A stretch of DNA of 20,000 nt from an uncultured virus (IMG/VR IMGVR_UViG_3300017971_000213) (lineage: Duplodnaviria; Heunggongvirae; Uroviricota; Caudoviricetes), in the IMG/VR virus record IMGVR_UViG_3300017971_000213, positions 109,007-129,006 of that record. One strand, 5' to 3'. Below the pieces are notes generated by a model. The model was given only the letters and a program-made list of their open reading frames with translations. It searched no databases and was not told where the DNA came from. The translations under genes and the position numbers were made by a program. Of this stretch, positions 1,339 to 20,000 are shown one piece after another (position 1 is the stretch's first letter; every line of letters begins with the position of its first letter).

Positions 1339-1536
1339 CTACACCCAACCCTTCTTCTCGGCCCACCATTCAGTAACCATGAGAACCCCATCGTCTCCCT
1401 TCCGCCACACGTCGCTGTCTTCGGTTATCTGGCTCTGTGGTATCCATTCAGGCTCGTCGAAGTCTGGAGCCTCCACCAAAATGGCCGTCTCCGTCTCCGC
1501 CGTACACTCTGCGTCTTCTATCCTGAAATCAGTCAT
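1339..1536 (-). CDS. Small conserved acidic phage protein
   Basis: ETETAILV...WIPQSQI...VTEWWAEKKG pattern is common in phage small proteins. ATG 1536 with GAGG SD. Confidence 0.65.
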   Translation of the reverse strand: MTDFRIEDAECTAETETAILVEAPDFDEPEWIPQSQITEDSDVWRKGDDGVLMVTEWWAEKKGWV

Positions 1537-2311
1537 CGTACTCTTCCTCAAGCGCCATTATCAAGCGCTGCATGTCGGCCTTGTAGAAGCCCGCACAGTT
1601 GATACATCCGCACTCAACGATCTTCCAGCCGGTCTCGGTGAGTGCAACATCCATCACGAACGACCGGGCTAGGCAGAACCGGTTGATCATCTTCTCGCAG
1701 AACCACGACGCCTCAGGAGGAACATCGATACTGAAGAACGGGCGGCCCCCGAGCTTGTAGCAGCTCTGCGCGGCGATTTTGGCCCCTACGACCCAGAAAC
1801 GGTACTCCTGCCGTACCCGCTTCACCGGGGCCACCTGGATAGGCGTCTCGTCCCTCAAGGACGTAACCAGCCCTCCGCCCTTAACACCCTGCTGGTGATC
1901 GTAGCGGAACTTCATCCAGGAGGTCATATTGAAGACCCCTCCGTTGAACTCCTTGCCGTCACCACACGGACGAATGAAGTAGTTACCTATCGGCCAGGGA
2001 AAGTCCTCACCGAACAGGTAGACGTTGGAATCGAAATTGAGGAGGTAGTGTTGGTAATGGTTCCGGTACACTAGAAAGTTGTGGTTCGGGGACAGCACCA
2101 CCCCCGGCACCCAACCAAGTTTCGACGCCAGCCGGGCCAGCTTCAACGACCCGAACACGAAAACGTCCTTACGGTCGGTCTGGAACTCGAACTCCTCGAC
2201 GAACGGCAAGACCCTTACAACCTCCCAATCGAGTCCGAGCCTCTCTAAGGTATCGGTGAGAGAGTCATAGCCTTCCTCGCGAAAGACGTTTTCTTGGATG
2301 ACGTAGTACAT
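1529..2311 (-). CDS. ATP-grasp domain protein (R2K clade / DUF4343-like)
   Basis: Motifs FIRP...K.F.G.V, EYRFWVVG.KI...S.Y and FVMDVA....GWKIVE..CIN.AGFY; 260 aa. Confidence 0.85.
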   Translation of the reverse strand: MYYVIQENVFREEGYDSLTDTLERLGLDWEVVRVLPFVEEFEFQTDRKDVFVFGSLKLARLASKLGWVPGVVLSPNHNFLVYRNHYQHYLLNFDSNVYLFGEDFPWPIGNYFIRPCGDGKEFNGGVFNMTSWMKFRYDHQQGVKGGGLVTSLRDETPIQVAPVKRVRQEYRFWVVGAKIAAQSCYKLGGRPFFSIDVPPEASWFCEKMINRFCLARSFVMDVALTETGWKIVECGCINCAGFYKADMQRLIMALEEEYDD

Positions 2312-4276: not shown

Positions 4277-4570
4277 CTAGTCGCGATCCAAGATCTCGAC
4301 GATGCGGTCCGCAGGGACCTCCAAATGGTCTTTCTGGTAGCCCTCACAGAGCTTTCGAATCTGGTCGAGCTTCACCCTGATCCGGAACAACTCACCGGCC
4401 TGCACGCCATTGAACTGCTCGCGGGGGACGATGGCGTAACCGTCCAGGTGCGCCACCGCGACCTCGACCGGTTCCCGTGTCTCGGGATCGATCATCATGC
4501 AGCCCGTAAACAAGATCTCATCAGGCCTTCTTGCCGCGATGTGGCAGTTCACCACTCTAGACTTCCTCAC
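4277..4570 (-). CDS. Hypothetical phage protein
   Basis: GTGA overlap with upstream gene; fits tiling. Confidence 0.55.
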   Translation of the reverse strand: MRKSRVVNCHIAARRPDEILFTGCMMIDPETREPVEVAVAHLDGYAIVPREQFNGVQAGELFRIRVKLDQIRKLCEGYQKDHLEVPADRIVEILDRD

Positions 4571-5301
4571 GAGTTTCCCTCCTTGGCTGCTAGGAACCCT
4601 CGGGGGATAACGGGGTTCCGCATCTCGATCTCACCCACGCCTGCACACTTCGTGCACTTGTTATAGATCTTCCGGATGTCCTTCTTGGGGACTTCGACCG
4701 TACCGTGCCCGTCACAAGCGTTGCAGGTCTGCCCCACCTTGTCCGTGCCGGGGATGTACCTGGCCCGACGGAGAAAGTCGAAAGCAGACCGCGCGGAGTA
4801 CTGCTTCTTCTTCCTTGGGTAGAACCAACCGGTACCCTTGCAGAGATAGCACTCCCCGGAAACCTTACCCGTCTTGGGATGCTTGTACTTACCGTCACCG
4901 CCGCACTTGCGACACGGGTACCGTACGAGACCACCGCCTCCGCACTTCTCGCACGTGGCAGTCTCGTATCCGACGGTCTTCGTGAACTCCTGGTACCCCC
5001 GACCTTGGCAGGTCTCGCAGGTCCTGGCAGACGTCGTGAGAGGGTAGCCATGACCCAACTCCACCAGAGGTGTCCCATCGACGGTAGAAAGGGCCTTGTC
5101 GGTCCCGGAAGCCCCGGTAGCAGAGACATGCCCCTCTAGCGTAGAAAAGGCCGCCTGAAGCTCCTGAAAGGCCTCCCCTGAGCCTCCGGTGTCGGGATGG
5201 GCGAGCAGGGACTGCTTTCGGAAAGCCGACTTCAGCTCTGTGAAGGTGAACTTGGCGTCCACCGAGAAACCCAGCAATTCCCTGGCACGAAGCTCCTTCA
5301 C
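4567..5301 (-). CDS. DnaJ-like protein: J-domain plus six CxxCxGxG zinc-finger repeats
   Basis: J-domain ELKSAFRKQSLLAHPDTGG..EAFQELQAAF with HPD. Repeats CETCQGRG, CEKCGGGG, CRKCGGDG, CYLCKGTG, CNACDGHG, CTKCAGVG. No C-terminal substrate-binding domain. Confidence 0.85.
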   Translation of the reverse strand: MKELRARELLGFSVDAKFTFTELKSAFRKQSLLAHPDTGGSGEAFQELQAAFSTLEGHVSATGASGTDKALSTVDGTPLVELGHGYPLTTSARTCETCQGRGYQEFTKTVGYETATCEKCGGGGLVRYPCRKCGGDGKYKHPKTGKVSGECYLCKGTGWFYPRKKKQYSARSAFDFLRRARYIPGTDKVGQTCNACDGHGTVEVPKKDIRKIYNKCTKCAGVGEIEMRNPVIPRGFLAAKEGNS

Positions 5302-7824: not shown

Positions 7825-8208
7825 CTATTTTCGGGGACGTACCCGTTTGAGGAGCACCTGCACGACAGTCGTACCGTCCTCCGCCGCGCAGTCCCACATC
7901 GCAGCCAGCTCCCATCCGCGAGCCCCCTCCCCGTTTAGGATGCACGGGAGATCGTTAGACTCCGTGAGAACCATCTGCATCCTCCGGTACTGGATCAATG
8001 GAGTCTCAGAGTCGTAGTAAGTCGTGCACAGCTCACAGAGCCGATGCAACTTACGACCGCCCGAGATCTGAATCGGCGTCAACCGATCTTTGATGTGCTC
8101 GTCACAGAAGCGCGCCCCGCAGTCGTCGCACATGTGTATACCGAAGGAATCTGTAGTAGCGTAACACCCTGGATGCGCGCACACCAGGGACGGCTTGTCC
8201 TTAGACAT
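7825..8208 (-). CDS. Zinc-finger protein with DUF4177-like C-terminus
   Basis: CAHPGC, CDDCGARFCDEH and CELC motifs; C-terminal LNGEGARGWEL...LLKR. Confidence 0.55.
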   Translation of the reverse strand: MSKDKPSLVCAHPGCYATTDSFGIHMCDDCGARFCDEHIKDRLTPIQISGGRKLHRLCELCTTYYDSETPLIQYRRMQMVLTESNDLPCILNGEGARGWELAAMWDCAAEDGTTVVQVLLKRVRPRK

Positions 8209-8713
8209 CGTCTCCCTCCACGGCTAGGATTTCGTCCATCCTCTGAGTGCCGATGGCCTCTCTGATCTTGGCCAAGTCGGTTTCCATGCGCTGGCACTGC
8301 TCGGACAGTCGATCCCTCTCGTCCCCCAGCTCCGCCCGCACCTCAAGCCCGCGAGTGACATCTCCTCGGAGCTGATTGTTCAGCCTCTTGGCCTCCTTCA
8401 ATAGCTCCTGGGTATCCCTGACCTCCAGACGAGCCTTCTGGGCTACCTCCTTGGCTTTCTCGGCATCTTCGTTCGCCCACTTGACCGCAGCGTCCTCGTT
8501 GAGTCGCATAAGGAATCGTGTAGATGTCGAAGGCACCATCTCGTCTCGGTAAACGGGATTCCCGTACTGGTCCTGGTTCCCGCTCTGGCAAGACTGCATA
8601 CGAGACTCCTGCTCTTGATACACCCCCACGATCTCGTACCCGCAGAGAGACAGCGCGTGAACTTTCTCCTCCTCGACGACCTGAACCTCTCCCGTCAATT
8701 CCATCTTGATCAT
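8201..8713 (-). CDS. Coiled-coil hypothetical protein
   Basis: ATGA overlap; heptad-rich C-terminal half. Confidence 0.6.
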   Translation of the reverse strand: MIKMELTGEVQVVEEEKVHALSLCGYEIVGVYQEQESRMQSCQSGNQDQYGNPVYRDEMVPSTSTRFLMRLNEDAAVKWANEDAEKAKEVAQKARLEVRDTQELLKEAKRLNNQLRGDVTRGLEVRAELGDERDRLSEQCQRMETDLAKIREAIGTQRMDEILAVEGDDV

Positions 8714-9153
8714 TTTCCGTCCTCCTTTTCGTGGAGTTCCTCCCGCAGCTGGATCAACTCTGCCAGCACGGGGTCATCGGGCTCTTCGTACTTCTCAGGT
8801 TCCACGGTCTTGGCCCCTTTGTAGAGGTTGCATTGAGGACACGCCAACTGGAGGTTGGTGAGGTCAAACTCAGCACCTCCCTTGGAGAGAGGTACGATGT
8901 GGTCGACATGGAACTTCTGGTGTCGCCGGATGCGCGAGCCGCAAATCATACAGATACCCCCATCGCGCTCGTAGACGACCCTGCGAACCCTCTTCCAGTC
9001 CGTCCCCATGAAGAAGTCGCGCAGACACTCCCGGCCGCAGAACGACGTTCTCCTGCCGCTCAGGGTCTTCCCGCATACCCTACAAAGACGTCGCCCCTGC
9101 GCGTCCTTACGGTACGGGAACAGCTTCGCATTGCTGTGAACGAGTCGACTCAT
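8710..9153 (-). CDS. HNH endonuclease with N-terminal zinc finger
   Basis: Start revised to ATG 9153. CRVCG...FCGREC, then RDGGICMICG...VDHIVPLSKGG....TNLQLACPQCNLYK. Confidence 0.9.
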   Translation of the reverse strand: MSRLVHSNAKLFPYRKDAQGRRLCRVCGKTLSGRRTSFCGRECLRDFFMGTDWKRVRRVVYERDGGICMICGSRIRRHQKFHVDHIVPLSKGGAEFDLTNLQLACPQCNLYKGAKTVEPEKYEEPDDPVLAELIQLREELHEKEDGK

Positions 9154-9386
9154 TCCGAAAACCCAGCAACCAACGGGAACACCTTGTCGAAGCACTCTCG
9201 GGCATCGACGTACTGCTCCGGACGAACCCTCTTCGGGGTATCCATGAACTCTTCTACGTTCGCGGTGATGCCGAGGTTGACCAGCTCGTCGAAGCACTCG
9301 CAGCAGATGTACCCAAGCCGGTTCGAGTAGCGATCACACATCACGTTGTCGCAACCTGTCCTGTCGCACGCCATCACTCCCATCAT
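9150..9386 (-). CDS. Conserved phage Cys-rich protein
   Basis: MGVMACDRTGCDNVMCDRYS...GYICCECFDEL; ATGA overlap, GAGG SD. Confidence 0.65.
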   Translation of the reverse strand: MMGVMACDRTGCDNVMCDRYSNRLGYICCECFDELVNLGITANVEEFMDTPKRVRPEQYVDARECFDKVFPLVAGFSE

Positions 9387-9664
9387 GCACCTCTCTGAAG
9401 GGGGATCACGGAAAACTTGCACGGAGTCCCGTCGGTCAACCTCTTGATCCGAATCGCCCGTTTGTCTCTCGAAGGACCCAGCTCGATGTACCCAAAACGC
9501 ACTAGCTCGTCGAGATGGTCCTTCACCGTACCTACGTTCCGCAACTGTAGCAGATCTGCGAGCCGGCGGCGCGTCGGAGGATAGCCCATGCGGTCGATAT
9601 AGGAAATCACCGTCTCCAGCACTTCGAGCTGACGGGTGGTCGGTTTTGTACTCTTGAGGGCCAT
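9383..9664 (-). CDS. LexA-like N-terminal winged-helix DNA-binding protein lacking the S24 peptidase domain
   Basis: T.RQLEVL..I...I...GYPPT.R.LA..L......TV..HL..L...GYI.......RAI; only 93 aa. Confidence 0.85.
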   Translation of the reverse strand: MALKSTKPTTRQLEVLETVISYIDRMGYPPTRRRLADLLQLRNVGTVKDHLDELVRFGYIELGPSRDKRAIRIKRLTDGTPCKFSVIPLQRGA

Positions 9665-15653: not shown

Positions 15654-16124
15654 TCAGCCCTCCTCGCTCGTGGCCAGTGCGTAGACCATCTCGGGCACGG
15701 TACACTTCTCCTCCGAAGGCCAAGGCCACTCGGCCTTCTTGAAGCACTCGGGACAGATACGATGGCCAGACTGAACACCGTCGGCGGCCTTCGCCATGCG
15801 ACCACACCTCGAACAAACCCAAAGAGGTCCTCCGAGCAACTTCGACAATCGCTCCAGGGTATCTTGGTTCAGAACGCTGAAGCGGCTCTCGTGTTCGAGT
15901 ATATTCTGACGCTCTGTGAGGCCCTGCACCATCCGTTCCAGCGCCCGCCTCTCCTGTGAGGCCTGCTGGTGCATATCTCGGAGAGTCAGGCAGCGGGCCT
16001 GGAGATTGGCAACACTCAGCTTCAAGCCCTCGCGGTCTTTGATCGTCGCGCGCAGCGCCGCCGACATTGCATCGATCTCATCGAGGATCTCAGCCTTGGT
16101 CCGTCTGTCCTTCGCATCACCCAT
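15654..16124 (-). CDS. Coiled-coil plus zinc-ribbon hypothetical protein
   Basis: CSRCG...ICPECF; GGAGGACTGAGATG junction. Confidence 0.65.
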   Translation of the reverse strand: MGDAKDRRTKAEILDEIDAMSAALRATIKDREGLKLSVANLQARCLTLRDMHQQASQERRALERMVQGLTERQNILEHESRFSVLNQDTLERLSKLLGGPLWVCSRCGRMAKAADGVQSGHRICPECFKKAEWPWPSEEKCTVPEMVYALATSEEG

Positions 16125-16125
16125 C

Positions 16126-16188
16126 TCAGTCCTCCTTCTTCATCCGCAGCAGATCCGTACCGCCACCGGAAAACCGAACATTGCCCAT
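16126..16188 (-). CDS. 20-aa micro-ORF coupled to the downstream gene
   Basis: GGAGG SD, MGNVRFSGGGTDLLRMKKED*, stop within TGA-G-ATG; first ORF after the promoter. Confidence 0.4.
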   Translation of the reverse strand: MGNVRFSGGGTDLLRMKKED

Positions 16189-16228
16189 CGTTTCGATCCT
16201 CCGTACCAGATCACGTACGACCCTCTAT

Positions 16229-16258
16229 GCTATATCATAGGTCCAAGGTTCCTGTCAA
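16229..16258 (-). promoter_or_regulatory. Sigma70-like promoter (TTGACA-N18-TATAGC) just beyond the array trailer
   Basis: Shares CCTATGATATAGC with the 7774-7802 promoter. Confidence 0.75.
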
Positions 16259-16296
16259 GCAGAAATCTTCTCACTGTCACAGACCATTCCACTACC

Positions 16297-17547
16297 GTCG
16301 AGACTTCTAAACCGTCTCACAGACATCGAGGGGATCGGCCAGTCGAGACTTCTAAACCGTCTCGCAGGTATTGTAAGCTGAGGCGATGAACCGTATTGCC
16401 AACACGGCCCGACAGTCGAGACTTCTAAACCGTCTCGCAGGTATTGGAAGCCCGCGAGAGTGAGCGCGTCTCCAGATGAGGCCAAGACGTCGAGACTTCT
16501 AAACCGTCTCGCAGGTATTGGAAGGGCCTCATGGTAGAGGATGTTGTCGGCGCGGTTGGGGGTCGAGACTTCTAAACCGTCTCGCAGGTATTGTAAGAAG
16601 AGCAACGGGCGAAGTGAGGGTACCAAGCACTTTGCGTCGAGACTTCTAAACCGTCTCGCAGGTATTGGAAGGGCGATCCCGAAAAAGATCGCGGCTTGGC
16701 CTCTCAGTCGAGACTTCTAAACCGTCTCGCAGGTATTGTAAGAACTGCGTGTTCGGGCTCCAGCTCAACCCGGCCTCTCAGTCGAGACTTCTAAACCGTC
16801 TCGCAGGTATTGTAAGCTCCGCGCGACGGAAGGGTAACGTCTACATCACCACGTCGAGACTTCTAAACCGTCTCGCAGGTATTGTAAGAGTGGACTGGCA
16901 ACCACTCCAACGGAGAGTGGCGTCCGTCGAGACCTCTAAACCGTCTCGCAGGTATTGTAAACAAGGGACGGTGCGCGCCCTGGGCCAGGCCTCCGGGATG
17001 TCGAGACTTCTAAACCGTCTCGCAGGTATTGGAGGACCCCAACCGGGGAAAGCACAGTAGAAAAGGAATGTCGAGACTTCTAAACCGTCTCGCAGGTATT
17101 GTAAGTCGGGTACCAGCCGAGAAGGTGTGTACCTCTACCATCGTCGAGACCTCTAAACCGTCTCGCAGGTATTGGAAGGGTCGGGTTGCGCGGTGGTCGG
17201 GATTCGACACCTCGGGTCGAGACTTCTAAACCGTCTCGCAGGTATTGGAAGCTGGTGACGCAGGTCCGGGATGGGGCGTTCTGCAAGCTGTCGAGACTTC
17301 TAAACCGTCTCGCAGGTATTGGAAAAAGAGCAACGGGCGAAGTGAGGGTACCAAGCACTTTGCGTCGAGACTTCTAAACCGTCTCGCAGGTATTGGAAGA
17401 CGGAATGCGGCGTGAAGCTGGTGGAGCATCCGGGTGTCGAGACTTCTAAACCGTCTCGCAGGTATTGTAAGCAGGATTTCTCGGTCGAGCGTGCTGAGGT
17501 TGGCCATCTTCGTCGAGACTTCTAAACCGTCTCGCAGGTATTGTAAG
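16297..17547 (-). CRISPR. Type V CRISPR array: 17 full 36-nt repeats plus one partial trailer repeat; 16 spacers of 34-40 nt and one of about 23 nt
   Basis: Minus-strand repeat CTT(A/C)CAATACCTGCGAGACGGTTTAGAAGTCTCGAC with a 3' hairpin CGAGAC/GTCTCG followed by AC. Full repeats start (+ coordinates) at 16342, 16415, 16489, 16562, 16636, 16707, 16781, 16853, 16926, 17000, 17070, 17143, 17216, 17290, 17364, 17436, 17512; partial at 16297. Orientation is inferred from the cas gene, leader and degenerate end. Confidence 0.97.
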
Positions 17548-17713
17548 GGCGCTTCGCCAGATCACAACAATTTCAGCAAGTTTGCTCTATGATTTCGAGC
17601 GGTCCACCACGACTGCCGTCGCGCCCAGAATTTCTTCAATGGTTTCGAGCACCAGGCCTCACCACGACCACAGCGCTCGCCAAATTGTCAAAGAACCAAC
17701 CGACCCGAACCGC
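17548..17713 (-). promoter_or_regulatory. CRISPR leader with boxA-like motif
   Basis: 166-nt gap between the cas stop and the first repeat. GTTCTTTGACAA at 17685-17696; duplicated motifs 50-55 bp apart. Confidence 0.7.
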
Positions 17714-19642
17714 TCACACCGAGGGCTGCGCAGCCTCCTGGGACTTACGCTGCTGAACGATCTTCTTCCCCTTCTTGCGCCCTTTCTGACGTCTCGACAT
17801 CTTCGGCTCGACAGGCACGCTCCCGTCGATCATCTTGAGGGTCTCGTCGTTCCTGTACAGACGCATGATGTTCCGTGCGGCATTCGCATCCTGGTCCCAC
17901 TTCGCACCGCACTCCACGCAGACATGATCGACCTCAGGAATAGCATCCCAGGGCTCCAGGCAACCGCACTCGAAGCACCGCTGGGTGGTCATGCGGGCAT
18001 CGACCCAAACCACGGTCCCTCCGCGCGCGAGGAACGCCTGGACGAACATCATCCGCAGCTCGTAGCATGCGGCCTCTTTCTGCTGGTTGCGCGCGGCCTG
18101 GATCTCCACCTTCTCGCTCTCAGGGGGCTCGTGCTTCTGCGTCTCGGTGAGCTTGAAATCCTCGATCACCAGCACCTTGTACTTCCGGGCCAGCTTGGCC
18201 GCCACCCTCCGGTAGTGGTCCTTACGGCGCCTGAGAGACTTCTGCTCCTGGCTCTCCTTCCACTGCCATAGGTGTCGGTCGCCTCCGTCCCTGCGGCCCA
18301 GGGACTCCTCGTAGGTCCCACTCAGCCAGTCCTTCAGGATCTGGAAGCCCTCTCCGTCTCCATCCCATCTCTTCTCCCCCCACTTGCGGAGGAGCCCAGC
18401 GTAGCGCTTCGGTGACTTCCACGAATGCAGGTATCGCACATCCTCACGGAACCACTCGGGCAGATTCTTCTTGTTCGACTTGATCCACCCCTTGAGACTC
18501 TTCTGCATCTCGTTCTGGTTCAAGGCCCGGATCGACTGAAGACTCTCCACCTTGTCGAACCCCCGGACCACCTCGGGCTCCATGAGCAGCTCGTCTCCGC
18601 GACCCAGCGGGTCCTGGCGGTCTCTCAAGTACGCCGCGTACTCATCCCCGTCCACCAGGTACGCCACCCTGATCTGATCCTCTCCGCGCTTTCTCCAACC
18701 GATGTCGACAGCCACTGCCCCACGTCCACTCCCGAACTCCTCGTGCTGGTACTCAGCAGGGAGGCCCAGGCTGAAGTGCACCGTCCACCGAGGACGATCA
18801 GAGATCATACGCCGCTTCACGACGGCCCACTTGATCCGCACCCCCTGGGGCAGCGGACGGTGCATGATGATAGGGAACTCCGCCCAAACAGGACCTCTGC
18901 TCTTCGTACTCCCCACTCGGAGCCGCATCACCCCACGACGCTTCTTGCGCCGCGTCTTCGACACCACCCCCTCGGGTGGCGGCTCCATGTCTACCTGGAG
19001 GAACGTATCCTCCCCTGAGAAGATCTTCTCCACGGGGTGCTTGTCCCCTTGAAGCTGTACGGCAACCGTACCGTCACCCCTCCACTGGAGAAACTTCGGG
19101 TCGAGAGGTTGTCCGTGCTCGTCCCACATCTTCAGATCTCTCCGCGAATCCTCCATCGCGTTGTCCACCTGAAGGTAGGTTCCCCAGAACAAACCCTCCC
19201 GGCTGAACCCCTGCTGGGCCGCCTGGGACTTTTCCGAAGCTGTCAGGTTCGCCTCGCTCAACCTCTTCTGCAACTCCTCGTCGAGCTTCAACTCCTTCCG
19301 AGCCTCGCTCAACCTCTTCGCCACCTCCTGGGCCGCCTTGCGCGCTTCCTTGACGCGGGCTCGCTGCTCGGCCGTGTCTGAACGCGATCTCGTCTTCGCC
19401 CTCTGACGTTTGAGGTCCTCTGTGGCGCGCTTCAACTCGCTCTTCGCCACCTTGTCCTCTTCGACCAACCCCTCCAAGGCCAGATCACGTTCATCGTAGA
19501 CCTCTCTTACCTTTTCTCTCCGCTCACGCTCGATCTCGATGAGCGCGTTCCGGTACTTATGCGCCAACCTCATCTGCTCCTCCACGAGATCAGCATTGAC
19601 CGTCGGTCCCAGCGGCAACCCGTACACATACGTCTTCGTCAT
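17714..19642 (-). CDS. cas12m: Compact type V CRISPR effector, Cas12m (V-U1/V-M)-like, 642 aa
   Basis: RuvC-I AVAVD313IGWR, RuvC-II LVIE494DF, RuvC-III WDQD585ANAA and zinc ribbon C556/C559/C575/C578. Blocks recalled from Cas12m: QMRLAHKYRN.L..IE, long N-terminal coiled coil, LFWGTY..V, W.GDGTVAVQLQ, MHRPLP, W.SP.R...L, R.D.YR.VAA. Adjacent to the array; GAGGAGG SD. Confidence 0.85.
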   Translation of the reverse strand: MTKTYVYGLPLGPTVNADLVEEQMRLAHKYRNALIEIERERREKVREVYDERDLALEGLVEEDKVAKSELKRATEDLKRQRAKTRSRSDTAEQRARVKEARKAAQEVAKRLSEARKELKLDEELQKRLSEANLTASEKSQAAQQGFSREGLFWGTYLQVDNAMEDSRRDLKMWDEHGQPLDPKFLQWRGDGTVAVQLQGDKHPVEKIFSGEDTFLQVDMEPPPEGVVSKTRRKKRRGVMRLRVGSTKSRGPVWAEFPIIMHRPLPQGVRIKWAVVKRRMISDRPRWTVHFSLGLPAEYQHEEFGSGRGAVAVDIGWRKRGEDQIRVAYLVDGDEYAAYLRDRQDPLGRGDELLMEPEVVRGFDKVESLQSIRALNQNEMQKSLKGWIKSNKKNLPEWFREDVRYLHSWKSPKRYAGLLRKWGEKRWDGDGEGFQILKDWLSGTYEESLGRRDGGDRHLWQWKESQEQKSLRRRKDHYRRVAAKLARKYKVLVIEDFKLTETQKHEPPESEKVEIQAARNQQKEAACYELRMMFVQAFLARGGTVVWVDARMTTQRCFECGCLEPWDAIPEVDHVCVECGAKWDQDANAARNIMRLYRNDETLKMIDGSVPVEPKMSRRQKGRKKGKKIVQQRKSQEAAQPSV

Positions 19643-19685
19643 CTCTTGCCCTCCTCGGCGTACCAGCCCTCATACCAACCTAGCC

Positions 19686-19715
19686 TATATAGCACAGAGA
19701 CACGGCCGCTGTCAA
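19686..19715 (-). promoter_or_regulatory. Promoter of the cas gene (TTGACA-N18-TATATA)
   Basis: Same architecture as the four other promoters; the -10 lies 43 nt upstream of the ATG. Confidence 0.8.
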
Positions 19716-19944
19716 CCCTCAAGCCCATCTGGGTCTTCGTCAGAGGTTGGCGCAACCCTACCTGGGTTACCTTGGGTTGGGGTACCACTTGGCGCGGAGC
19801 GCCTACCTTGTGGTGAACCCCTGGTAGACCAGTCGCCGCAGGCGACGATCCTTACAACAACCCTACCTCGGTACCTCAACCCCTCCGTAGATGTTCTCGA
19901 ACCTCGTACACTTCAACCTACCTTGCCGCCGCCCCTTGCGACCT

Positions 19945-20000
19945 CCATCAAGTACCCATCAAGTACCCATCAAGTACCCATCAAGTACCCATCAAGTACC
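19945..20000. repeat. 11-bp perfect tandem repeat (CCATCAAGTAC)n, at least 5 copies, running off the window
   Basis: Units start at 19945, 19956, 19967, 19978 and 19989. Confidence 0.95.

Follow-up and report, generated by a model that had tools for sequence, protein, structure and literature searches.

The 20,000-nucleotide (nt) stretch analysed here, hereafter the window, makes up the final 20 kb of an uncultured virus record of 129,006 bp (IMGVR_UViG_3300017971_000213, 67% complete). It encodes a full-length type V-M Cas12m effector of 642 amino acids (aa), followed on the same strand by a CRISPR array. The protein is a new but ordinary member of the branch of Cas12m with an Asp-Glu-Asp (D-E-D) RuvC triad and probably an effector of the D-E-D/N-E-D 'clade 3' type. 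On the analysis presented below, it is probably a silencer that binds its target without cutting double-stranded DNA (dsDNA), and its competence for cleavage appears unlikely. An initial annotation of the same DNA had singled out the intact triad as the mark of a possibly cleavage-competent relative lying between TnpB and Cas12m. The range that it gave, 17714-18720, does hold the RuvC domain and the zinc finger (approximately residues 308-642), but this is only the C-terminal half of a gene that reaches 19642. The gene and its recognition (REC) lobe are located as follows:

17714..19642, minus strand: cas12m, 642 aa, stop codon TGA at 17714-17716 (list of open reading frames, phmmer, AlphaFold2 and Foldseek).
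19136..19594, minus strand: REC lobe of coiled-coil type, with four long helices (residues 17-148) and a fifth (153-169), from DSSP of the AlphaFold2 model.

Membership of the Cas12m family, already suspected in the initial annotation, was confirmed by full-length matches to solved Cas12m proteins, much too strong to be due to chance, and by structural comparison. In a phmmer search against all Protein Data Bank (PDB) chains, the best match was 23vw_A, 'CRISPR-associated DNA-binding protein Cas12m' (E-value (E) 3e-66, 227 bits, residues 11-595). Cas12m2 (8hhl and 8hio) matched at E 7e-28, UnCas12m4a (23vu) and GoCas12m (8pm4) each at E 3e-20, and the chains of Cas12f, TnpB and Fanzor only at residues ~464-612. 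The residues printed for 23vw_A are those of the TfCas12m sequence (Bigelyte et al., 2024, Table S3) with an offset of 10 (D316/D560 versus D306/D550), and because of this agreement PDB 23vw is taken to be TfCas12m. No linked publication was found for 23vu, 23vv or 23vw, and the literature search gave mentions of Cas12m1 and none of Cas12m3, Cas12m4 or UnCas12m4a. The AlphaFold2 model, built from 56 homologues (mean predicted local distance difference test, pLDDT, 91.3; predicted TM-score, pTM, 0.85), displays every part of the Cas12m architecture, the REC coiled coil among them: four long N-terminal helices (17-148), a beta-rich wedge (WED) part and a C-terminal RuvC domain with zinc finger, the domain names REC and WED being those of the published Cas12m2 and GoCas12m descriptions. 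When this model was compared with the PDB by Foldseek, ranks 1-4 were all Cas12m2 or GoCas12m (query TM-score, TMq, 0.61-0.73), and all other chains listed, Cas12f and TnpB included, had TMq of 0.40 or less.

Two other identities were considered and rejected. TnpB (IS200/IS605) and Cas12f have a RuvC and zinc-finger core in common with the protein, the Cas12f chains matching at residues 522-593, and the sole Pfam domain found is the Cas12f1-like_TNB zinc finger (PF07282, E 1.3e-11, residues 529-592). However, the scores of the TnpB families in NCBIfam are far under their cut-offs, with 47.9 bits against 100 for guided_TnpB (residues 468-594, E 1e-12) and 22.3 bits against 425 for IS200_TnpB. 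Unlike TnpB, the 642-aa protein has a large REC coiled-coil insertion, adjoins a CRISPR array instead of an omega RNA, and lies in a phage with no transposon context. The idea of an evolutionary intermediate between TnpB and Cas12m is thus not upheld, since the architecture is entirely that of Cas12m and D-E-D is ordinary there; the protein is no missing link and is unlikely to be a new editor. As for Cas12j (CasPhi) of huge phages, it is likewise compact and phage-encoded, with an array lacking adaptation genes, it is free of trans-activating CRISPR RNA (tracrRNA) as the query probably is, and it is described as a nuclease in the accessible literature. Its fold is nevertheless remote and belongs to a different Cas12 branch: there was no CasPhi among the 19 phmmer matches, and in Foldseek it appeared only at ranks 25 and 33 (7odf and 7lyt, both TMq 0.27).

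The residues of the active site and the associated zinc finger are encoded at these positions:

18704..18706, minus strand: codon of D313 (RuvC-I, AVAVDIGWR), aligned with D of 23vw_A and H of Cas12m2.
18161..18163, minus strand: codon of E494 (RuvC-II, VLVIEDF), at least 90% conserved in 56 sequences.
17888..17890, minus strand: codon of D585 (RuvC-III); D583, Q584 and D585 are each at least 90% conserved in 56 sequences.
17870..17899, minus strand: RuvC-III motif WDQDANAARN (residues 582-591), read from the sequence.
17909..17977, minus strand: TNB zinc finger CxxC...CxxC (C556, C559, C575 and C578; PF07282 at 529-592), codons checked.

The triad reported in the initial annotation is indeed present, as verified at the codon level. 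In the phmmer alignments D313, E494 and D585 stand opposite the RuvC D/E/D of 23vw_A (motifs aiDLGWR, vlEEF and WDQDYNAA) and the H/D/D of Cas12m2 (8hhl_A); they align with the triads of solved Cas12m proteins and are therefore RuvC-site positions, with no other residues placed in the site by the alignment to Cas12m orthologues. D583, Q584, D585, A586, N587 and N591 are invariant in a six-sequence alignment (A2), and the zinc-finger cysteines C556, C559, C575 and C578 are at least 90% conserved in the 56-sequence alignment. An arginine between the two zinc knuckles is held to be necessary in some Cas12f and TnpB proteins, a point that our literature search did not confirm; the corresponding stretch of the query (GCLEPWDAIPEVDHV) contains neither R nor K. 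A basic C-terminal tail, with 12 K/R among the last 44 residues, completes the protein.

An intact D-E-D triad is not unusual in Cas12m, because it is the published state of clades 3 and 4 and is also found in most of the nearest homologues, so that it does not distinguish this protein as had been supposed. Four clades have been described, with triads HEK/HQK (clade 1), HDD (clade 2), DED/NED (clade 3) and DED/DND/NED (clade 4) (Omura et al., 2023); the scheme stems from Wu et al. (2022, Mol Cell) and is quoted here second-hand from Omura et al. The D-E-D of the query lies within this range, and the phrase 'gradual inactivation' within type V-M has already been used (Altae-Tran et al., 2023). 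In our census, comprising the query and the best 120 of 175 database hits, 84 of the 121 rows were D-E-D, 14 N-D-D, 8 N-E-D and 5 D-E-gap, the other 10 having other combinations. After the five rows with a triad gap were dropped, a FastTree phylogeny of 116 homologues showed D (88), N (26) or E (2) at the first triad position, which had changed at least 10 times, compared with six changes at the second position and two at the third. The 12-row subclade containing the query is D-E-D throughout, and its sister group, starred on the tree, has N-E-D in four members and N-D-D in one; to this sister group belongs the second most similar protein of all (P0002, 48% identity). Viral D-E-D Cas12m proteins are also already published. 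The CHOOSER study describes 21 Cas12m of viral origin (623-999 aa, larger than bacterial ones), 9 of them D-E-D, and MvCas12m of myxophage MV-1 is a 610-aa D-E-D protein (2026 preprint). The query is one more virus-encoded clade-3-type Cas12m in a family that has been described, solved and engineered.

Whether D-E-D means cutting can be judged mainly from the relatives that have been assayed. The initial annotation stated that MmCas12m and GoCas12m have an H-D-D site and bind without cutting dsDNA, which agrees with the published descriptions. Bigelyte et al. (2024) tested eight variants. Four of these carry D-E-D (Ms, Ap, Un and Tf, each assigned to clade c3 in Table S1 of that paper), while H-D-D and N-D-D are represented by two variants apiece; as far as the accessible text goes, none of the eight gave a dsDNA cleavage signal by adapter ligation, and six bound DNA in a manner dependent on the protospacer adjacent motif (PAM). 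According to the same source, purified MsCas12m (D-E-D) and GoCas12m cleaved neither DNA nor RNA, in cis or in trans, the MsCas12m mutant D274A retained processing of the precursor of CRISPR RNA (pre-crRNA), and TfCas12m interfered with a plasmid only at a target within the replication origin, in a roadblock-like manner. Conversion of H-D-D to D-E-D in Cas12m2 is stated not to have regained cleavage, as 'data not shown' (Omura et al., 2023).

These results bear directly on the possibility that the query is a true RNA-guided dsDNA nuclease, a compact, tracrRNA-free phage cutter, which we regard as unlikely. Such a reading would be in keeping with the canonical D313/E494/D585, the conserved RuvC-III motif and the uniformly D-E-D subclade, and Omura et al. 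(2023) themselves suggest that DNA hydrolysis by clades 3 and 4 is possible. In addition, the only self-match of a spacer in the array has a mismatch at guide position 2, as would be expected if a perfect self-match were harmful. However, all four tested D-E-D proteins of clade c3 failed to cut dsDNA, the closest solved relative, TfCas12m, is among them with its interference limited to the origin, and restoring D-E-D in Cas12m2 was without effect. Moreover, loss of the first Asp at least 10 times among the 116 homologues, the sister clade included, does not square easily with a function of the family that depends on catalysis. Judging from these sequences the catalytic Asp is dispensable in the Cas12m family, and cleavage is unlikely as its function because repeated loss of this residue has been tolerated. 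There is only a slim chance that the query, unlike the four tested D-E-D proteins, retains real nuclease activity, whether it cleaves dsDNA fully or only nicks the displaced strand. If it did, the complete conservation of its D-E-D and DANAARN site would be the explanation, and phages of ~190-205 kb would wield a 642-aa, tracrRNA-free, self-processing DNA cutter against their competitors.

A number of points weigh against a silencer that only binds, and the hydrolysis that Omura et al. consider possible for clades 3 and 4 is one of them. The published negative cleavage assays of D-E-D Cas12m amount to four proteins, and none of the four lookup motifs of the tested Cas12m was found among the 120 closest homologues of the query. 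The active site appears to have been preserved: in 56 sequences, conservation reaches at least 90% at E494, D583, Q584 and D585, the triad is intact in the majority of the census and in the whole 12-row subclade, and the RuvC-III residues DANAARN are kept in the query and close relatives, compared with DQDRSFVT in Cas12m2. A catalytic role still to be discovered would likewise be consistent with this conservation. Finally, no spacer target outside the phage was found in the databases scanned.

One such role would be a RuvC domain that is catalytic elsewhere, for example in trimming the guide 3' end, in nicking the displaced strand only, or in cutting single-stranded DNA. Conservation of the triad is not accounted for by binding alone, and a preprint on PmCas12m describes cleavage at guide positions 17-18 as well as within the repeat. 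However, PmCas12m, in which this guide cleavage is seen, is itself N-D-D. Furthermore, pre-crRNA processing by MsCas12m survived the D274A mutation, and the purified enzyme cleaved neither target nor collateral DNA or RNA in the reported assays. We therefore find a catalytic role of this kind very improbable. Binding without dsDNA cleavage accordingly remains our preferred reading, and with it a puzzle arises for the whole family, namely why most Cas12m keep D-E-D if they do not cut. The query would be a reasonable test case for it.

Comparison with the two best-described types of relative illustrates where the query stands. TfCas12m of Thermanaerosceptrum fracticalcis (23vw_A, clade c3) shares the D-E-D triad (D306/E459/D550), the DLGWR-region and WDQDxNAA motifs, the domain order and, probably, the single-crRNA organisation of a type V-M system. 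It is shorter (567 versus 642 aa), the extra loops and the basic C-terminal tail being those of the query, and it is bacterial and chromosomal, whereas the query resides in a phage. TfCas12m has also been assayed, with no dsDNA cleavage and origin-only interference in the accessible report, while the query is known from its sequence and a model. MmCas12m/Cas12m2 (8HHL) and GoCas12m (8PM4) of clade 2 are the top Foldseek matches (TMq 0.72-0.73) at 20% identity, and they resemble the query in their two-lobed build, which comprises a REC coiled coil, RuvC and zinc finger, and in having an array without adaptation genes. They differ in their H-D-D triad and degenerate RuvC-III (DQDRSFVT), in contrast to D-E-D and DQDANAARN in the query.

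The array that would supply the guides begins 166 nt downstream of the cas12m stop codon:

16297..17547, minus strand (that of the gene): CRISPR array of 17 full 36-nt repeats (CTTMCAATACCTGCGAGACGGTTTAGARGTCTCGAC) and a truncated terminal repeat; 16 of the spacers measure 34-40 nt and the last one 21 nt.
16297..16320, minus strand: terminal repeat, truncated and degenerate (GTGAGACGGTTTAGAAGTCTCGAC), at the trailer end.
17548..17713, minus strand: leader, from the cas12m stop codon to the first repeat, present also in metagenome contig L045 ahead of different spacers.
17326..17363, minus strand: spacer 3, identical to spacer 13.
16598..16635, minus strand: spacer 13, the second copy of spacer 3.
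17252..17289, minus strand: spacer 4, with a 34/38 match, 28 contiguous, to a gene of the phage itself.

Read on the gene strand, the repeat can fold into a stem of 6 bp capped by a 9-nt loop, which leaves 2 nt up to its 3' end and the spacer (minimum free energy -8.7, z -1.95), and 9 of 200 shuffled sequences fold equally well. A 3' stem-loop before the spacer is the usual layout of type V CRISPR RNAs (crRNAs). The array of a related 205-kb phage record (G004, L020:6840-9280) has more than 30 copies of the repeat at 61-100% identity to a reference copy, and these display paired stem changes (GAGAC/GTCTC, GGGAC/GTCCC, GGGAG/CTCCC, GGGAA/TTCCC and GGGAT/ATCCC), which appear to amount to natural covariation support for the stem. 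The initial annotation had also called the system tracrRNA-free, in agreement with our search for anti-repeats within 4 kb on both sides, which gave no tracrRNA candidate, the longest match being 12 nt in coding-like sequence. This match lies 2.2 kb upstream of cas12m (L007:1751-1762) and corresponds to repeat positions 9-20 in reverse complement; it extends on neither side and is probably due to chance. An Rfam scan of 16000-20000 with E up to 1 returned one sub-threshold snoRNA match, which was dismissed.

By analogy with the characterised relatives, the phage-borne effector would act with this adjoining array. The array would be transcribed from the gene-proximal leader, and the pre-crRNA would be cut inside the repeat by Cas12m itself, independently of RuvC, yielding a crRNA that consists of the 3' repeat stem-loop and a guide of ~17-20 nt. 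The complex would then locate a PAM-flanked double-stranded target, form an R-loop and stay bound, so that transcription or replication of the uncut target would be blocked. In this scheme the acidic triad may hold magnesium and grip the displaced strand, and the likely targets would be competing phage relatives or other mobile elements, so that the biological role of the system is inferred to lie in conflicts between phages.

The leader end of the array is the one next to the gene, because the degenerate repeat stands at the far end and because of the patterns seen in two metagenome contigs. In L045 the same leader precedes nine different leader-proximal spacers, which are followed by spacer 16 of the query array. 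Contig L047, which encodes a protein 98% identical to the query (P0001), carries spacers 1, 2, 3, 14, 15, 16 and 17, that is, the query array minus the block between the duplicate spacers 3 and 13. The variant arrays thus have trailer spacers in common and differ at their leader ends. This turnover takes place though the phage is without adaptation genes: profiles of Cas1, Cas2 and Cas4 (Pfam) had no match in the complete 192,260-bp record described below, while control genomes were positive. Turnover under these circumstances implies one of two routes, the use of machinery borrowed from the host or an exchange between arrays by recombination. We favour recombination for at least one event, because the duplication of spacer 3 as spacer 13 is matched by the deletion variant L047. 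It was also observed that spacers 11 and 12, which are neighbours (16672-16780), start with the identical nine bases TGAGAGGCC.

The record is a phage, on the evidence of its genes, and its complete form is ~192 kb long: the identical gene and array occur in an IMG/VR record that measures 192,260 bp, has direct terminal repeats and is rated 100% complete. In a survey in which 55 of the 73 open reading frames of at least 200 aa were submitted to PHROGs, 18 of the 55 had matches at E 1e-8 or better, among them terminase large subunit, portal, head protease, baseplate wedge, tail fibres, DNA polymerase, clamp loader, primase and helicases. Among the relatives are two complete phage records (188,555 and 205,564 bp) whose terminases share 68-70% identity with that of the query phage. 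Both also encode D-E-D Cas12m proteins (47-50% identical), followed by arrays with closely related repeats, and cas12m with its array thus appears as a conserved feature of a phage lineage of ~190-205 kb. In the 188-kb record (G003, and also G002) the array of the phage encoding P0003 is bracketed by a 38-nt inverted repeat of 89% identity (L019:7195-7235 and 8159-8196), one arm of which, with TTGACA, lies directly after the cas12m stop codon and the other just beyond the last repeat. The query window yielded no similar structure.

A similar layout has been met in other viruses. UnCas12m (IMG/VR, D304/E457/D548), the viral set of CHOOSER and MvCas12m are, like the query, encoded by viruses beside an array and, in the accessible descriptions, without cas1, cas2 or cas4. 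MvCas12m is distinct from the query, its published numbering (D305/E463/D555, 610 aa) fitting no protein aligned here, and the MV-1 array is given as 8 spacers, compared with 17 repeats in the query array. The virus Rctr197k (KX853510.1, Caudoviricetes, 197,311 bp) has the same arrangement as the query, with a 622-aa homologue followed by an annotated CRISPR region of 1.5 kb. This homologue (within L052, which covers 109507-117168 of that record; 30% identity, E 2e-66) is D-E-D by alignment and is annotated as 'similar to transposase'.

Spacer 4 offers the one sequence match that may inform on targets. It corresponds to approximately G001:162475-162512 of the complete phage genome, in a part absent from the assembly of the window, with 34 of 38 positions identical, including an uninterrupted run of 28 (E 2.5e-11 in 63 kb), and mismatches at guide positions 2 and 31-33. 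The site is located within a 126-aa open reading frame of an unassigned family, and its 5' flank is GATTCCGC. The near-copy provides a concrete case for setting the exclusion of relatives against regulation of an own gene by a phage-borne, non-cutting CRISPR system. For the latter, spacer 4 would guide the non-cutting Cas12m to the 126-aa gene of its own phage and tune its expression, making the system a programmable repressor and not a weapon. The long match to a gene of the complete phage genome itself agrees with such a role, and self-targeting would be survivable if binding were not followed by cleavage. On the other hand, the mismatch at guide position 2 falls beside the expected PAM side, and GATTCCGC contains neither of the PAMs, TTN or YTN, reported for Mm, Go and Pm in the accessible sources; other Cas12m members are stated there to have undefined T-rich or C-rich PAMs. 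The pattern is explained equally well by acquisition of the spacer from a related phage, in which case the resident copy would be an escape variant. Self-regulation is the less likely of the two since the variant array of L047 is without spacer 4, which is hence not essential, and we consider such a repressor role quite unlikely. In the simplest reading, spacer 4 was derived from a relative's copy of the gene, and the mismatch on the PAM side lets the resident copy escape, which would point to the exclusion of related phages.

Further searches for protospacers covered several collections. The 17 spacer strings matched only the array in the 129-kb assembly of the window, all other matches being of 14 nt or less when exact or of 15 nt with one mismatch. 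The whole array had no match by blastn (E up to 1) among INPHARED phages and PLSDB plasmids. Exact patterns of spacers 4 (30 nt), 16 (24 nt) and 3 (24 nt) were found in IMG/VR only in the phage's own record, and those of spacers 16 and 3 had no match in the species genomes of GTDB, imperfect protospacers escaping both of these exact scans. Cross-targeting between the query phage and G002, G003 or G004, or by the L045 array, gave only repeat-driven matches from array to array.

The remaining features concern possible expression signals and the neighbouring genes:

19643..19715, minus strand: upstream region of cas12m, with a promoter-like TTGACA-N18-TATATA (19686-19715) and GGAGG 8 bases before the ATG.
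8710-9297, minus strand: HNH endonuclease.
9383-9664, minus strand: small LexA-type DNA-binding protein.
1529-2311, minus strand: R2K-clade ATP-grasp protein.
4567-5301, minus strand: DnaJ-like zinc-finger protein.

In the window, 8 of the 31 open reading frames match PHROGs and 6 of the 31 match Pfam, the 25 others being without a Pfam match. The promoter-like element and GGAGG ahead of cas12m were found by eye and not by program; the consensus promoter scan omits this TTGACA-N18-TATATA, as its rule demands T at position 6 of the second hexamer. The scan for promoters and terminators gave a number of sites no higher than in shuffled sequence. Repeats with CTTACAAT have a -10-like TACAAT at the repeat 5' end (window 17540-17567), and this TACAAT together with TTGTGA of the leader is the only sigma-70-like site reported by the scan, at a level not above that of shuffled sequence. 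Finally, approximately 300 nt upstream of cas12m an 11-nt unit (ATCAAGTACCC, plus strand) is repeated in tandem in at least five copies (19946-20000). The tandem array continues at L007:3632-3697; the 129-kb assembly stops inside it, while the 192-kb record spans it.

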